Positions 3,633 to 12,313 of a stretch of 19,618 nt of DNA are shown here, in pieces; position 1 is the stretch's first letter; each line of letters begins with the position of its first letter. The stretch lies in the IMG/VR virus record IMGVR_UViG_3300014691_000062; one strand, 5' to 3'. The stretch is from a virus (Duplodnaviria > Heunggongvirae > Uroviricota > Caudoviricetes). The notes below the pieces were generated by a model. It did no database searches. It had not been told where the DNA came from and saw only the letters and a list, made by a program, of their open reading frames with translations. A program made the translations under genes and the position numbers.

Positions 3633-4116
3633 CTATCTGCACTGCTCATTAATATACTTCTGGGTTCCTTCCAGTTGTTTTTGCATAGTGATCAGCCTCT
3701 CTCTGAGAGTGAAATAATCCCGTTCAGCGGTGTCTGCCAGTCGGGGGGAGGCTGCATTATCCATGCCGGAGGCGGTGGTGGCTTCACGCACTGACTGACA
3801 GACTGCTTTGATGTGCAACCGACGACGACCAGCGGCAACATCATCACGCAGAGCATCATTTTCAGCTTTCGCATCAGCTAACTCCTTCGTGTATTTTGCA
3901 TCGAGCGCAGCGACATCACGTTGGCGCACCTGCATGTCAGTAATTGCCGCGTTCGCCAGCTTCAGTTCTCTGGCATTTTTNNNNNNNNNNNNNNNNNNNN
4001 NNNNNNNNNNNNNNNNNNNNNNNNNNNNNNNNNNNNNNNNNNNNNNNNNNAGCCAATGACATGCAGACGATGATGCAGATGAGCAGAGCGGAGATAATCG
4101 CGGTTAATCTGCTCAT
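3633..4116 (-). CDS. Rz: Rz i-spanin (inner-membrane spanin subunit), interrupted by an N-run
   Basis: C-terminal part (ORF 3633..3935) matches lambda Rz by recall; N-terminus [18 protein letters not shown] is read from the ATG at 4116, which overlaps the R stop (ATGA). N-run 3981..4050 lies inside, so the length is not a multiple of 3. Confidence 0.85.
3692..3874 (-). CDS. Rz1: Rz1 o-spanin lipoprotein, embedded in Rz in the +1 frame
   Basis: 60 aa [24 protein letters not shown]…[15 protein letters not shown]…, lipobox and proline-rich body as in lambda Rz1. Confidence 0.85.
3981..4050. other. Run of 70 N (gap or masked sequence) inside Rz
   Basis: Literal n characters in the sequence. Confidence 1.
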
Positions 4117-4589
4117 ACCTCAATCTCTCTGACCGTTCCGCCTGCTTCTTTGAATTTTGCAATCAGGCTGTCAGCCTTATGCTCGAACTGGCCATAACCA
4201 GCGCCCGGCAGTGAAGCCCAGATATTGCTGCAACGGTCGATAGCCTGACGGATATCACCGCGATCAATCATCGGTAAAGCGCCACGCTCCTTAATCTGCT
4301 GCAGTGCAACAGCGTCCTGGTTTTTCGGAGAGAAGTCTTTCAGGCCAAGCTGCTTGCGGTAGGCATCCCACCAACGGGAAAGAAGCTGGTAACGTCCAGC
4401 TGCGGTTGATTTAAGTTGCGGGTTTAGCGTGACAAGTTTGCGAGGATGATCGGAGTAATCCGTGAATAGCTCACCACCTACAATAACGTCGTAGCCGTGA
4501 TTGCGGGTTGGCTGTCGCCCGTTATCCGTTCCTTCTGACCACGCCAACATATCGAGAAAAGCTTTACGCTGGGAATTTAGTACCTGCAT
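4113..4589 (-). CDS. R: Endolysin, lambda R-type lytic transglycosylase
   Basis: 158 aa, near-identical by recall to lambda R (…QRKAFLDMLAWSEGTDNGRQ…TRNHGYDVIVGGELFTDYSDHPRK…). Confidence 0.9.
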   Translation of the reverse strand: MQVLNSQRKAFLDMLAWSEGTDNGRQPTRNHGYDVIVGGELFTDYSDHPRKLVTLNPQLKSTAAGRYQLLSRWWDAYRKQLGLKDFSPKNQDAVALQQIKERGALPMIDRGDIRQAIDRCSNIWASLPGAGYGQFEHKADSLIAKFKEAGGTVREIEV

Positions 4590-4592
4590 AAA

Positions 4593-4919
4593 TTACTCCT
4601 TAGAGCCACCAAACTTGTTACCGATTACTCGCATTGCAGCCCCACGAATAGCATCGACACCGATCAGCCCCACCCCACCACCAATGGCAACAGATAGTGA
4701 TTTAGGCCATCCGACATACTCAAGCGCGGATGCAAATGTCAGCGTCAGAGCGCCACAGAGTAAAATCTCAAGCGTTTTTCGCTTCCAGCCACCACCACCG
4801 CCAAAATAGGCAATGCGCAAGCCAGCCATAACGATCGACATAATCACTGCGCCCAGTGGTGTGTCTCCACGCCACCAGCTCTGGACCAACTCCAGCCAGG
4901 TATTTGGGTTATGAGGCAT
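4593..4919 (-). CDS. Putative holin (not lambda S-like or S21-like)
   Basis: 108 aa directly upstream of the endolysin; two to three hydrophobic segments, Gly-rich stretches and a charged C-terminus; GAGGTGAG SD upstream of the ATG. Assigned on position and topology only. Confidence 0.55.
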   Translation of the reverse strand: MPHNPNTWLELVQSWWRGDTPLGAVIMSIVMAGLRIAYFGGGGGWKRKTLEILLCGALTLTFASALEYVGWPKSLSVAIGGGVGLIGVDAIRGAAMRVIGNKFGGSKE

Positions 4920-5071
4920 TTGTAGTTATCTCTCACCTCGCTGATACAGCAGGTGCAAATTGAGGGAACATCATGTACAGCAAATTAGAAGCGGAAACGT
5001 CAAAGAAGCCGAACCAATGGATAACTGCGGAATAGACCAGGACCAACGAATCCCCAGCCCCAGAAACGACA

Positions 5072-5093
5072 AAACCCGCTCAACGGCGGGTTT
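5072..5093 (-). terminator. Intrinsic terminator-like hairpin upstream of the holin gene (tR'-like position)
   Basis: Stem aaacccgc/gcgggttt (8 bp); on the minus strand it is followed by a T-rich tract (TTTTGTCGTTTCT). Confidence 0.5.
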
Positions 5094-5209
5094 AAGCTGT
5101 GTGGCGAAGTAACCACTCTTAACAGAGTACTGTATTTTTTGCGTACGCATTAGTATTTTTTGAAGTATTATCAACACCAATTGTTCAAAACCATTAAAAG
5201 GATGTTGTT

Positions 5210-6244
5210 ATGACTGCATCAGCGACCCCCACTAATATCACTCATAAGTTTATTGTTCACATTATGAACAAGGAACAACAGGGGTTAGCCACCATTATTC
5301 CTTGTCCTTCAGAAAAACCTGTTCAGCAAGCATCAAAAGACCTCTCTAACGCACTTACTGAAAGGTACTCTGGGAGAGCAGGTAAAGGATATGGGAAATT
5401 TGAAGATGACCGCGATAGTTACCCTATGGGTAATATCGTTGATGATTATTTCGTAAATAAAACACATAGTTTTTATGATACTAGTATCCGAATGATCAAT
5501 CATTTAAAAGCCAGAGCCGATGATGAATCAATGTCTACTGGTGGTTATGTAATAATTGCCCATAATGAGGTAAATGGAAATCATTATTTGATGGTTGCAA
5601 TCCTAACTTCAGCAGTTGGCTCTTCAGTCCACGATTTTGAAATTCAAGAAAGTGAATATCTAGACATTGCTAAACTTCGAGTAGCGGGACGAATTGACTT
5701 AACTGGGCGCCAGAATGGCAAAGAGAGATATATTAGCTTTCTAAAGGGGCAAAATTCAGTAGCAGGTTATTTCAAAAAGTTTTTAGGTTGCAACGATATT
5801 CTAATTGCCAAACAAGAAACAACAAAATTACGGAATGCACTTTTAGAATTTGCTACTGAAAGAGGTTTTGAACCAGAGGCACGTGAAGAGTTCCTAAATA
5901 AGGCTCATGAAAAATTAAAAAATTTAAATCGTTCTGGTGAAACTTTCGACACTCAAATTTTTGCAAACGAGATATGGCCAACTGCTCCTGAGTTGTTAGT
6001 TGAAAAGTTAACCAATGACGATCTGGAGTTCTCTGATGGGTTCGTGCCTGATGGCAACGTTATACGTGGGCTTGTTAGTTTCAAAGGAAAGTCCAAACAT
6101 TGGTCTCTGAAATTCGAGCGTGCGGCCTTGCATGATGGCAGCGTTCTTTATGATTCAGAAAACGATAAATTGATACTTACCGAGATTCCGGATACGCTAA
6201 GATCAGAGATTTTATCAGAATTAGGTGAAGAGGATGAGCAGTAA
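5210..6244 (+). CDS. YejK/NdpA-like (NA37 family) nucleoid-associated-protein homologue, cargo gene
   Basis: 344 aa; AAGGA SD 7 nt upstream of the ATG. By-eye alignment to E. coli YejK along the length ([22 protein letters not shown] / [38 protein letters not shown]…RYISFLKGQ / YLDINHADIVARIDLT…RYLTFLKGR). AT-rich relative to the phage backbone. Confidence 0.75.
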   Translation: [344 protein letters not shown]

Positions 6245-7412
6245 AAATCAGAGAACCTTCAAAGACTTAGTGACTATTTACAAGGCCGCTACATTTGCAG
6301 GTACCCTATCTGAAGCATCACTCATTCTTTCAAACGAGGAGCTCTGTGACATCATCAACGATATCACAGAGAATCCCCATGATTTTGGCATCACCCTTGA
6401 ATCTGGCAACATTGAGTTAGGCCAAACTATAACCTTACATATAACCCCCCCCAAATTACGATTGGGGCAGCTACATTTCTCTTTTAATGAGTATTTAAAA
6501 AATCCTAAAAATAGGATAAAGGAAGCCAGTAACTTCTTTATAATCGAACTTAATTATCACAACAGGGATAAAAAGTCGCCTGCTATTATATCCAAGTACA
6601 GAGATGTTTTGAGCTTAATTACTTTATTCAAAGATTGTTCTGCTTATTTAGATGAAACAAATTTTGAATTGGTATTCGTCGAATCCAACGTACTAAAAAT
6701 TCCAGTAAATTATTCTAGCGATGATCTTATGAATGTTAATGGAGATCTGATTCATAATTTGATCGCAAACTTTGCAGAAGATACGCATAAAGATCAAAAA
6801 CTTACTATTTTAGCAAGTAGTATAAAATCATCATGTGAATCTAAAACTAAAGAAACCTCTTTTTCCTTCATGTTAAGGGATTTAGGACAACTTTATGAAA
6901 GTTATCAAAAAGGATACAAAGTATTCGTTTCTGGTTTTTCTTACGAGAAAATACTAGATCAGTTACGAGTAGCCAAAATAGAAGAGATGGGGAAAATACA
7001 TAAAGTATTCAGTGACATACAAAATCAGATATTAGGTATCCCCGTCGCAACAATTATCGTTGCGACTCAAATGAAGCAGGCTAATGGTTGGGATAGTCAA
7101 GCATTAATAAACACAGCTGTAGTGTTGGGTGCATTGTTCTTCACTATTATGATTATATTTGTTCTATTTAATCAATGGCAAACTTTAACAGCAATAAATG
7201 ATGAGTTAAATCATAAAAAACAACAAGCAGAATATAACTTCAAGGCTATTTACGAAGATATAAAGGATACATTTGATAGTTTAACCACAAGATTGCTTGT
7301 TCAGAAAGTTGTTTTTGCCTCATTAGGAATTATAGTTTTATGTGGCTTATATCTTACATTTAGATTCTACTTTTTACTTACACCTTATGCTATTACATAT
7401 TTATTTAGCTGA
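6234..7412 (+). CDS. Membrane protein with a large N-terminal soluble domain and two C-terminal transmembrane helices, cargo gene
   Basis: ORF 6225..7412 (GTG); preferred ATG at 6234 with AGGTGA SD, overlapping the upstream stop by 11 nt. Hydrophobic helices ALINTAVVLGALFFTIMIIFVLF and VVFASLGIIVLCGLYLTFRFYFLL. Very AT-rich. No family recognised. Confidence 0.75.
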   Translation: MSSKNQRTFKDLVTIYKAATFAGTLSEASLILSNEELCDIINDITENPHDFGITLESGNIELGQTITLHITPPKLRLGQLHFSFNEYLKNPKNRIKEASNFFIIELNYHNRDKKSPAIISKYRDVLSLITLFKDCSAYLDETNFELVFVESNVLKIPVNYSSDDLMNVNGDLIHNLIANFAEDTHKDQKLTILASSIKSSCESKTKETSFSFMLRDLGQLYESYQKGYKVFVSGFSYEKILDQLRVAKIEEMGKIHKVFSDIQNQILGIPVATIIVATQMKQANGWDSQALINTAVVLGALFFTIMIIFVLFNQWQTLTAINDELNHKKQQAEYNFKAIYEDIKDTFDSLTTRLLVQKVVFASLGIIVLCGLYLTFRFYFLLTPYAITYLFS

Positions 7413-7429
7413 CGGCCAATATGGCCGTC
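7411..7429. terminator. Perfect hairpin between convergent Q and the cargo cassette (candidate bidirectional terminator)
   Basis: gacggcc-aatat-ggccgtc, 7-bp GC-rich stem, in the 24-bp gap between the two convergent stop codons. Confidence 0.55.
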
Positions 7430-7436
7430 TAATAAA

Positions 7437-7784
7437 TTACCCATGTATTATATATATAACTGCATCAATAAATCCCAATGCAGCTTGCAACTTTTTTCTT
7501 ATAGTCCCATCAGAGCATTTTCTCTTCTTCGCAATAGTGCGTAATGAGATACCGATAACATAGTGAGCAATGATTAGCTCATATTCTTCAGGCCTATATT
7601 TACGCAACCGAGCCACACAACTGTCTATCATAATGCCTTCGTCATCATCACACTGAATCCGGGACTTTTTGCCATGAGGTAAAAGTCCCTTGAAGCCAGC
7701 GGCTACCGGTTGCCAGTCCACTCCGCTATTGTCTGAAGCAGCCCAAGCTCCCCAACGATCCATTACTTCATACATATCACGCAT
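7437..7784 (-). CDS. Late-gene antiterminator Q (QuuD / phage-82 type)
   Basis: 115 aa from the ATG at 7784 (track start 7799 is TTG); GGAGAAAG SD. Matches DLP12 QuuD by recall (MRD…RWGAWAA…AAGFKGL…KSR.QC.DDD…CSDG.I.K.LQ). Confidence 0.8.
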   Translation of the reverse strand: MRDMYEVMDRWGAWAASDNSGVDWQPVAAGFKGLLPHGKKSRIQCDDDEGIMIDSCVARLRKYRPEEYELIIAHYVIGISLRTIAKKRKCSDGTIRKKLQAALGFIDAVIYIIHG

Positions 7785-7801
7785 CAACTTTCTCCACAAA
7801 A

Positions 7802-8797
7802 TCAGGCCAGCACACCAATTGCCAGCGCACGATCGATAAAACGAAATATCAGCTCCAGCTGGGAGCCATACATCTCTTCAAATGCCACGGTATCCGCATG
7901 CAGCTCGTCGTGATGCTTTCTGCACAAAGGCAACACAAAGAGGTCATGCGCTTTTGTCCCCATTCCACCCTGACCATGGCCTATCAGGTGGTGGGGATCA
8001 TCAGCGGGCTTTCCACAACATGCACACGGCTGTGTCTTAACCCAGCGCGTGTACTTTTCATTAACCCAGCGGCGACGTTTTGGGCGTAACATAAAAGACT
8101 CCGGTGACTCCGGATCCACTTTCAGCGCCAGCACCTTTTTCGCCTTATCCTGGATGATGCTGGTGGCAGGAACCGAAGGAACAAGGTCACTTTCCCGGGT
8201 GACAGACGGCACAACAGGCTTCGGTAATCTCAGTGCCTTACGGGCTGCACTTTCCGGTAAGGCATCCGCCAGGTCATTACGAACCAGCCACCAGCACAGT
8301 TCCGGCATTGTCACAACGTGACTATCATCAAAACCGAGATCACGGCGCACAACAGATAACACCCAGCGGGCACAGTTATCCGTTGCCATTGATTCCAGCC
8401 GTTCCGTGAACTGGTCACGCAACTGGTTATCGCAGTGCCAGCACAGACGGATTGCGCCCGGCGCATGGCGCGTTGTGGTCATGTTTTCGCTGTGCCAGTC
8501 GGAGTGAGGCCACTGACAGCCTTTTTCACGAAGTAACCAGCTTTCAAGACATTCCACGCCACCAGCACGACGGATCACTGCCTCATTGCGGAACACGGCC
8601 CGAACGGCAGGATCATCCGCCAGCGGTTGTGATGCTGCCGGAACGGCACCACTGGCGAAAGATGAATAACGTTCCGGCTCAGGCTCCAGCAGGACACGCC
8701 CCTGCATAAACAGGGGCATCAGTTCTGAACCTGGTCTGAACAATACGATCCCCATACGCGGGGCAATTTCAGGGGTCAGTAGTGCTCTCACGGTCAC
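7802..8797 (-). CDS. DUF968-like protein with C-terminal Cys/His-rich (HNH-like) motif
   Basis: 331 aa; C-terminus …CACCGKPADDPHHLIGHGQGGMGTKAHDLFVLPLCRKHHDELH…; immediately upstream of Q as in other lambdoid nin regions. Start uncertain (GTG at 8797, or GTG at 8791 with GAGG 5 nt upstream). Confidence 0.6.
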   Translation of the reverse strand: MTVRALLTPEIAPRMGIVLFRPGSELMPLFMQGRVLLEPEPERYSSFASGAVPAASQPLADDPAVRAVFRNEAVIRRAGGVECLESWLLREKGCQWPHSDWHSENMTTTRHAPGAIRLCWHCDNQLRDQFTERLESMATDNCARWVLSVVRRDLGFDDSHVVTMPELCWWLVRNDLADALPESAARKALRLPKPVVPSVTRESDLVPSVPATSIIQDKAKKVLALKVDPESPESFMLRPKRRRWVNEKYTRWVKTQPCACCGKPADDPHHLIGHGQGGMGTKAHDLFVLPLCRKHHDELHADTVAFEEMYGSQLELIFRFIDRALAIGVLA

Positions 8798-11480: not shown

Positions 11481-12313
11481 TCACCCCCTGAATCCTGCCG
11501 GGATCTGGCTGTAGTCCACGTTGTCGTAACTGGATTTGAAATACGGGTCTTCGCGTTTTTCTGTGTATGTGCTGATGGACGGCGATAAGCGCAGGGAAAG
11601 CTCATCCCATTTTTCCCGCAGCTTCGACGGGCTGAGCACGTTACGGCACCAGAACGGATCGCGGCTGACGCGGCTGTACATCTCGCAGATTTGTTTGTGA
11701 GTACGACCATCCTGCACACACATCAGGCGAATTTCGTTTGCCCAGGCTGTCCAGTTCGGTTCTTTGGGACGAACCACCTCGCCGTCACATTCGGCGGCCT
11801 GCTCGTACAGGGCGATGANNNNNNNNNNTGCTGGGTTGGGAAACCGCCGGAACGAGAAGGTTTTTTATCTGACGGATCATGTTTTGATTTTACTGACGGA
11901 TCCCCGCCAGATTCTGACGGGTGAAAACCCGCTTTTTTGCCAGATTTCGACGCATCAAATTTTGACGGGTCAGATTTTGATGCGTCAGATTTTGACGGGT
12001 CAGAATCTGACAGTTGAGAAAATGCCGCTGCCTGAAGCTTCGCAACGTTAAGCTGATAAACATTCGACGCATTGCGGTTACCCTGGCGACGCGCCTTACG
12101 CGTTAACCAGCCTTCTGCTTCCAGCCGTGCGATAGCCGTTCTGACGGTACTCATCCCCGCGCCAATCTGGCGGGCAATGGTTTCAATTGATGGCCAGCAC
12201 ACACCTTCGTCATTACTGAAATCAGCCAGGCGGGCCATAATTGCCACGCTGGATAATTTCATGCCTGATGCAGCGCAACCATCCCATACATAGCCGGTTA
12301 ATTTAGTGCTCAT
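11481..12313 (-). CDS. Replication initiator (lambda O-like organisation, HTH N-domain) with the origin iterons inside the gene; interrupted by an N-run
   Basis: N-terminal HTH domain (…WPSIETIARQIGAGMSTVRTAIARLEAEGWL…), then a repetitive SKSDASKSDPSKFD linker encoded by iterons; C-terminal part is ORF 11481..11777. N-run 11819..11828 inside; GAGGT SD. Confidence 0.7.
11819..11828. other. Run of 10 N inside the replication gene
   Basis: Literal n characters in the sequence. Confidence 1.
11866..12012. repeat. Origin-like iteron array
   Basis: About 8 tandem copies of a ~12-15 bp unit built on TGACGG (cagattttgacgggt, cagattttgatgcgt, attctgacgggt, tactgacggatc …). Confidence 0.7.

Follow-up and report, generated by a model that had tools for sequence, protein, structure and literature searches.

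The Q-to-holin interval and a recurrent module

The stretch analyzed here (the window, 19,618 nucleotides of IMG/VR record IMGVR_UViG_3300014691_000062) is part of a mosaic lambdoid Escherichia coli prophage and includes the region for late control and lysis. On its minus strand, the gene of the late antiterminator Q is separated from the holin gene by a cargo cassette of two plus-strand genes. Of 5426 complete E. coli genomes, 16 contain this Q-cargo-holin stretch, with 97.6-99.9% identity. An earlier note on this DNA had left open whether the late promoter pR' lies next to Q, with late transcripts crossing the cargo antisense, or has been displaced to within 5094..5209. Here we describe a module of about 100 bp (about 5165-5061, minus strand), directly upstream of the holin gene, which ends in the hairpin at 5093-5072 and is present in 137 related loci. 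According to our analysis, this module is likely to be the late promoter/terminator unit, split from Q by a foreign cassette and standing ahead of a holin of the lambda S family. Positions of the individual features are listed in Table 1.

Comparison with phage genomes showed that several of them match the window discontinuously, over Q and again over a short stretch from 5071, and that the DNA separating these two segments differs. In PhiR49_2, window positions 5161->5071 align (85%) to 90 bp that begin at the Q stop codon. In SfII, Stx2a_1447, phage cdtI and Klebsiella phage Kp4865-4, the module stretch is found 1.5-2.3 kb from Q, and different pairs of opposite-strand open reading frames (ORFs) occupy the space between. 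For a wider survey, two sets of 80 loci were taken from IMG/VR using either the window Q or the PhiR49_2 Q as query; column statistics of the module refer to 69 distinct variants in the 137 loci. Of the 80 closest relatives of the window Q, 76 are followed by the module at a distance of 1.3-3.7 kb from the Q stop, and the sequence downstream of Q is too short to reach it in the remaining 4. In 22 loci whose Q is of the PhiR49_2 type (92% identity or more) and in which the module was found, the near-invariant block of the module begins 27-38 nt past the Q stop, with no insert. The corresponding distance in the window is 2313 nt, and the proposed promoter unit is thus not directly downstream of Q.

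When representative inserts were compared all against all, different insert classes proved to have no DNA in common except the module, a stretch of ~90-120 bp at the late-gene end. It is followed by the head of the late operon, which is the holin gene in the window and SfII and a methylase-tRNAs-stx2 series in Stx2a_1447. The module occurs in 834 of the 5426 complete E. coli genomes, with a maximum of 3 copies in any one of them; in the records examined, it is unannotated. A full-text literature search for its invariant sequence found no paper.

In lambda and phage 21, pR' occupies its canonical place directly downstream of Q. Were this also the case in the window, the cargo would be transcribed antisense and the hairpin at 5093-5072 would be the first terminator to be overridden. 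We consider this very improbable, as the Q stop and the convergent cargo stop are just 24 bp apart, a gap filled by another hairpin, and no DNA downstream of Q is common to the 23 cargo classes that we distinguish. In 9 of 11 classes examined, the end of the convergent cargo gene either overlaps the Q stop or is 13-56 nt away from it, which leaves no room there for a promoter/terminator unit of ~90 bp. Moreover, the element that is specific to the type of Q and the conserved -10-like hexamer, both described below, are located at the module and not near Q. With nothing beside Q conserved between cargo classes and mostly no room for it, the antisense crossing envisaged in the earlier note is not borne out. 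In favor of a Q-adjacent promoter, the best hit of the consensus promoter scan is an 11/12 promoter-like sequence on the late strand (TTGCCA-18-TATAAT, 7181..7152). We rejected this candidate: it is situated in an AT-rich coding region and is specific to one cargo class, and promoter-like matches in that region are fewer than in shuffled sequences (6 vs 9.9). The site, inside the second cargo ORF (7152-7181, minus), is probably a chance match in AT-rich DNA, but such a site could drive antisense transcription of the cargo. As for the hairpin that fills the gap (7413-7429), neither of its sides is followed by a T-run, and the terminator scan did not report it; it may be a weak bidirectional terminator or a stabilizer of RNA 3' ends.

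Table 1. Features of the Q-to-holin region, in order of decreasing position in the window
Feature	Position	Strand	Evidence or remark
DUF968/YdfU-type gene	7802-8797	minus	HNH-like C-terminus; directly upstream of Q
Q late antiterminator, 120 aa	7437..7799	minus	PF06530, E 5e-45
GC-rich hairpin ACGGCCA-ATA-TGGCCGT	7413..7429	.	fills the 24-bp gap between the convergent stops of the second cargo gene and Q
395-aa protein, hydrophobic C-terminal segments	6225..7412	plus	no Pfam match
NA37/NdpA-like protein, 344 aa	5210..6244	plus	PF04245, E 8e-69
A-tract	5156..5161	minus	near -45..-40 relative to the predicted start; retained by at least 70% of variants
Candidate Q-binding element TGCGTACGCA, core GCGTACGC (5141..5148)	5140..5149	minus	single copy in the window
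Alternative -10 register TACAGT	5129..5134	minus	phage 21 spacing, 7 nt between -10 and TAAG
Best candidate -10 TACTCT	5124..5129	minus	TAnnnT conservation; predicted start near A5117
Near-invariant 33-nt block GTTAAGAGTGGTTACTTCGCCACACAGCTTAAA	5091..5123	minus	most columns at least 95% conserved; occurs once in the window
tR'-like intrinsic terminator	5061..5093	minus	8-bp stem (5093..5072) and T-rich tail (5071..5061)
Holin leader hairpin CACCUGCUG-UAU-CAGCGAGGUG	4934..4955	minus	compared with the DLP12 leader by RNA folding and alignment
Holin, class I, lambda S family, 108 aa	4593..4919	minus	SfII/SfV-type allele, single start codon
Endolysin R, lambda-type, 158 aa	4113..4589	minus	94% protein identity to lambda R

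Terminator and candidate promoter and Q site of the module

From its upstream end, the module consists of an A-tract, a weak -35, a GC element of 8-9 bp, an A-run, a TAnnnT hexamer, the 33-nt block and the terminator. The A-tract, a possible proximal UP-element judging by its position, marks the left edge of the conserved module, and the DNA further upstream is cargo-specific.

The terminator scan identified the hairpin AAACCCGC-CGTTGA-GCGGGTTT at 5093..5072 on the minus strand, followed by TGTCGTTTCT; its RNA fold has an energy of -19.6 kcal/mol (z = -2.1). Taken alone, the scan is without significance (4 sites, vs 2.7 +/- 1.9 in shuffles). However, a GC-rich hairpin with a U-run is kept at the end of the module in nearly all 69 distinct variants. 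The stem is mostly CCCGC/GCGGG, and several variants carry a different GC-rich hairpin and U-run of the same design. Significance thus comes from this conservation of design despite replacement of the stem sequence, and the terminator that the earlier note had placed on the late-operon strand (5072..5093) is real. It lies ~25-50 nt past the predicted start, ahead of the late genes.

Among the promoter candidates, the TAnnnT hexamer, which sits immediately 5' of the invariant GTTAAGAGTGG, is the best conserved. Its A2 and T6 are present in 69 of 69 variants and its T1 in 55 of 69, while the three inner positions vary freely. Invariant A2 and T6 around free inner positions are the signature of a -10 element, and the predicted late start falls within 5123-5116. 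A second register, TACAGT, begins 5 nt upstream of TACTCT and would put TAAGAG at +2..+7, as in phage 21. We demoted it as the preferred -10 (5134-5129), since the key A2 and the key T6 are each kept in only 55 of 69 variants, so that 14 of 69 are without the A and 14 of 69 without the T. We also rejected the possibility that TAnnnT is a pause element served by a -10 located 12-13 nt further upstream: the hexamer at that distance is CAAAAA in most variants.

The 33-nt block downstream is a candidate discriminator and initial transcribed region. It contains two candidate sigma-dependent pause elements, TAAGAG/AAGAGT (5121..5115), of which TAAGAG resembles the phage 21 pause element TAAGCT, and CAGCTT (5099..5094). 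Under the TACTCT register, TAAGAG/AAGAGT could not act as a pause element, and CAGCTT at +19..+24 is the sole nAnnnT in the transcript. We also observed that the invariant AAGAGT-GG-TTACTTCGC (5115-5101, minus) resembles AACGAT-GGG-TTAATTCGC of lambda pR'. The lambda counterpart, at 44,588-44,606 (L007 789-807), comprises the pause element, GGG and the pause site, and the Q proteins of the two phages belong to different families. It is the TACAGT register that brings these two stretches into line.

The GC element switches with the helix-turn-helix type of Q across unrelated cargo contexts. This pairing was assessed on 45 distinct Q/module contexts over many cargo classes, with Q typed by its helix-turn-helix region. 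The core GCGTACGC accompanies Q proteins of the window type (...ISLRTIAKKRKCSDGTIRK...) in 20 of 20 contexts, and the core GCGGTCCGC accompanies Q proteins with ...ISKRKIAK.RKKDEKLIRIE... in 22 of 24, with a one-base difference in the remaining 2. A third form, ACGTACGT, is found with QuuD of DLP12 (1 context; QuuD is 45% identical to the window Q). The pairing is kept while the cassettes between Q and the module change repeatedly, as would be expected if the element were the DNA site of Q. The element at 5140..5149 is therefore put forward, on this covariation, as a candidate Q-allele-specific binding site.

The window Q belongs to PF06530, the family named for Q21 and Q933W (10.1101/651190), and the late regulatory cassette of phage 21 is one of the closest known systems. 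The window Q matches the Q21 structures 6P18/6JNX weakly in direct comparison (E 4e-4). According to the annotation of phage 21 (OL657228), the -35 of pR' begins 7 nt past the Q stop, two Q-binding subsites lie between -35 and -10, transcription starts 42 nt past the Q stop, the pause element TAAGCT occupies +2..+7 and the terminator ends 91 nt past the stop. The Q-binding subsites and their function in Q21 have been described (10.1101/651190, PMC6606751). The window resembles phage 21 in having a PF06530 Q, a compact unit of ~90-100 bp, a candidate Q site between -35 and -10, a TAAG-type element that is -10-like and a terminator ~50 nt past the predicted start. In cargo-free relatives, the unit also follows the Q stop immediately, and its spacings are close to those of phage 21. 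Unlike in phage 21, the window unit is 2.3 kb from Q and shows no DNA homology to pR'21, Q is 120 aa rather than 162 aa and is weakly similar to Q21 (E 4e-4), the candidate site is GCGTACGC instead of two TGAGCA direct repeats, and the -35 is weak compared with TTGACA. The forms GCGTACGC, GCGGTCCGC and ACGTACGT are palindromic or a 6-7-bp CGC repeat (in the window, a palindrome or a 6-bp ACGC repeat). On these patterns, Q proteins of the window's branch may recognize a palindromic GC element and not direct repeats like those of Q21.

Several observations weigh against a promoter in the module. A consensus sigma-70 scan of 4500-7900 passed no promoter within 5094-5209, and the -35 is poor (CTAATG, 2/6 matches to TTGACA, with an 18-nt spacer). 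The TACTCT register puts the invariant TAAGAG/AAGAGT at -4..+3, unlike the position of the pause element in phage 21 and lambda, while the register with the phage 21/lambda geometry (5134-5129) is without the key A or T in ~20% of variants. The GC element is not the 8-bp-spaced TGAGCA direct repeat of Q21, and the module has no Rfam match, as no family matched in a search of 4800-5400 (E <= 1). In DLP12, moreover, the promoter essDp is reportedly RpoE-dependent. RpoE-type -35/-10 motifs were not seen by eye in the window module.

The comparison with DLP12 of E. coli K-12, which the earlier note had proposed, revealed the same architecture. The gene order is quuD, nmpC (on the opposite strand), module, essD, rrrD, rzpD/rzoD and borD, and the module is 88% identical over 77 bp, between nmpC and essD and ~120 nt upstream of the holin. 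DLP12 thus shares with the window a Q-family gene, an opposite-strand cargo, the module and a lysis cassette with bor; it differs in its cargo (the porin gene nmpC), in its holin (essD, 71 aa, S21-like) and in its GC element ACGTACGT. PMC7918800, citing Toba 2013 and Rueggeberg 2015, describes the lysis operon as controlled by a Q-type antiterminator and RpoE; the published regulation of the lysis cassette by Q(DLP12) is thereby placed upstream of essD, which favors the module. The reporter primers given there also add to the points against us, as they map the published essDp +1 close to where nmpC starts, ~325 nt upstream of the module; this mapping is approximate (reporter fragment '-121 to +650', reverse primer with 2 mismatches). 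It agrees with a late promoter on the holin side of the cargo and disagrees with the exact placement proposed here. The DNA at the essDp site is specific to DLP12 and missing in other phages, so it is not a family-wide promoter.

These data leave some room for a module that is an insulating terminator only, perhaps a small-RNA gene or a Q-loading site, but that has no promoter. The late start would then lie further upstream in cassette-specific DNA, or late transcription would result from read-through of the early operon. The DLP12 numbering, the weak -35 and the negative consensus scan would fit such an arrangement, and TAnnnT might conceivably act as a sigma-dependent pause element instead of a -10. 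We nevertheless regard it as unlikely. The DNA upstream of the module is unrelated between cargo classes and corresponds to the Q coding region in cargo-free phages; a family-wide promoter can therefore lie only inside the module. If TAnnnT were a pause element, a -10 would be needed 12-13 nt upstream, where most variants offer no plausible hexamer. In addition, loading of Q21-family proteins needs a promoter-proximal, sigma-containing complex (10.1101/651190, PMC6606751).

Taken together, the position of the module, its Q-paired GC element and the TAnnnT hexamer support the second option of the earlier note, a pR' displaced to within 5094..5209. They favor a displaced pR', which probably lies within 5094-5165. 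Promoter activity, the exact start, pausing and Q binding are predicted here from family memberships, conservation, positions and covariation. In the scheme that we propose for this pR'/tR' unit, Q, a short member of the Q21 family, would be made from the early-right operon and would find its target 2.3 kb from its own gene, in the module directly upstream of the holin (~5165 to 5061, minus). Without Q, RNA polymerase would start near 5117-5122 from the -10 TACTCT (5129-5124), make an RNA of ~55 nt and stop at the terminator (5093-5061). Q bound at the GC element TGCGTACGCA would be loaded on the promoter-proximal polymerase and allow read-through of the terminator, which would continue into the holin, R and Rz/Rz1 genes and on to the terminase genes. 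The AT-rich 2.2-kb cassette would occupy a recurrent slot between the Q stop and pR'. As it would lie outside the late unit and points away from pR', it would not be traversed by the late transcript, though transcription that continues from the early operon past Q would still run through it.

The holin and the lambda-like lysis genes

The gene that follows the module encodes a protein of 108 aa, which the earlier note had called unrelated to lambda S. Our results showed otherwise. In the holin-family hidden Markov model search, it matches PF05106 (Phage_holin_3_1, 'Lysis protein S') with 88.1 bits (E 5.7e-25), well above the curated cutoff of 23.8 bits, and the match is full-length, covering residues 3-102 of 108 and model positions 5-99 of 99. 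It also matches the holin/anti-holin family phrog_126 (E 1e-36). Aligned to lambda S by BLASTP, the protein is 24% identical over 104 aa (E 4e-6), collinearly and without rearrangement. The PGAP name of the protein is 'phage holin, lambda family', and in the Shigella phages SfII, SfIV and SfV the same allele, at 90-93% DNA identity (93% for SfII S), is annotated as S. Hydropathy analysis revealed three hydrophobic peaks (~residues 21-40, 49-68 and 74-92), collinear with the transmembrane segments of lambda S, ahead of a basic C-terminal tail RGAAMRVIGNKFGGSKE with 4 basic and 1 acidic residues.

The sequence has diverged from lambda S past recognition by eye, and its low identity (24%), its glycine content (18%, compared with 10% in lambda S) and the absence of a dual-start motif are what a new holin class, or a protein that is no holin, would have in its favor. 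We hold such a reading to be scarcely tenable given the PF05106 match far over the cutoff, the phrog_126 match, the pairwise alignment with its collinear hydrophobic segments and the annotation of the same allele as holin S in three phages. At the level of family membership, it is refuted by PF05106, phrog_126 and the pairwise alignment. The dual-start motif, absent from the 108-aa ORF, is a feature of lambda S itself and not of every PF05106 member. The protein begins MPHNPN, aligned to Met3-Pro4 of lambda (S105 starts from its Met3), and an in-frame TAA stands 9 nt upstream of the ATG, so that no lambda-type S107 antiholin is possible.

By sequence, then, the 108-aa protein is a full-length, ordinary, distant member of the lambda S family (class I holin), with a predicted function in lysis. 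It shares with lambda S (S105/S107) the PF05106 domain, the length (108 vs 107 aa), the position upstream of R, the three hydrophobic segments and the basic tail, and it differs by its 24% identity, its higher glycine content and the lack of an S107-type antiholin. What had been noted correctly is a small Gly-rich membrane protein at the holin position, of another allele than lambda S, whose gene is joined to a lambda-like R/Rz/Rz1/bor block.

The holin stop at 4593 lies 4 nt ahead of the R start at 4589, and the gene thus heads the lysis cassette. In its leader, just upstream of the ribosome-binding region, TTCCCTCAATTTGCACC...GCGAGGTG is conserved before the unrelated DLP12 holin essD (L088 ~4862-4885). 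The inner stem of the leader hairpin is GCUG/CAGC in one and CGC/GCG in the other of the two leaders, window and DLP12 essD. Such a hairpin may control holin translation.

Downstream of R, Rz/Rz1 are on the minus strand and bor is on the plus strand, followed by an HNH gene and the terminase genes. To call R, Rz1 and Bor near-identical to lambda was fair, with protein identities of 94%, 97% and 92%, respectively. DNA homology to lambda (91-94%, blastn) begins at window 4571, just inside R, which places a mosaic joint at the S/R boundary. Further observations concern the flanks. The HNH endonuclease gene, at 2433-2783, is just upstream of the small terminase gene, and a DUF968/YdfU protein is likewise encoded upstream of Q in SfII, cdtI and Stx2a_1447. 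Runs of N (masked bases) are present at 325-393, 3981-4050 and 11819-11828; the large terminase gene and Rz are not fully readable because such runs interrupt both (3981-4050 in the case of Rz).

Cargo cassettes between Q and the module

The cargo cassette has a GC content of 35%, compared with ~50% for the rest of the window, and its two proteins match phrog_3767 and phrog_5023. PADLOC gave no hit on either of them. Across the 113 loci with an insert between Q and the module, we distinguished 23 unrelated insert clusters, the window cassette being one of them, each with one to three genes, with the main ORFs on the strand opposite to Q and a GC content of 0.30-0.46. Slot cassettes match the PADLOC candidate families PDC-S60 (Metallophos-STAND, 1060 aa), PDC-S33 (RelA/SpoT) and PDC-M53A, and none of those tested matched a validated defence system. 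We also noticed a second, unrelated NA37 cassette, the L021 class (23 loci; L021 6352-8744), which encodes a 391-aa NA37 protein and a partner of ~400 aa; neither of the two NA37 pairs matches any known defence system. NA37 and its partner may represent an undescribed two-gene system built on a nucleoid-associated-protein fold.

A fixed slot that holds unrelated, AT-rich cassettes of one to three genes is reminiscent of the prophage defence hotspots of P2/P4 (Rousset 2022, Vassallo 2022). Those belong to another phage group, and the slot described here differs in being placed between an antiterminator gene and its probable promoter. In Stx and other lambdoid phages, the Q-to-lysis interval is known for accessory genes, and Stx2a_1447 carries the same module. 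However, stx lies downstream of pR' in the late orientation and is expressed with the late genes, in contrast to cassettes of the window type, which would be upstream of pR', are in the opposite orientation and would be uncoupled from late transcription.

We tentatively suggest, as a possibility that we judge somewhat less than even, that the junction between the Q stop and pR' in this branch of the Q21 family is a dedicated, undescribed slot for accessory or anti-phage genes. Its cargo would be insulated from the late transcript, with Q acting kilobases away at a palindromic GC site. A Q-to-holin hotspot was not described in the literature searched, which is not proof of newness. The parts themselves are all of known kinds, namely a class I holin of the lambda family, a Q21-family antiterminator and a probable compact pR'/tR' unit.

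Under the proposed arrangement, the hairpin at the end of the module would be the tR' of a compact late unit, the cargo would lie outside the late transcript and the problem of antisense traversal would not arise. The module would also serve to mark, in a simple way, where the late operon starts and so which genes are co-expressed with lysis or toxin genes and which are not, with a reach that includes DLP12 of K-12 and some Stx2 phages. The co-variation of Q type and GC element yields testable predictions on DNA recognition by short Q21-family proteins. If the slot is as suggested, a prophage could carry lysogen-expressed cargo shielded from its strong late transcript, and Q could act on a target kilobases from its own gene. 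As the most interesting by-product of this work, the Q/pR' slot would then be a compact place to seek new prophage-borne defence genes.

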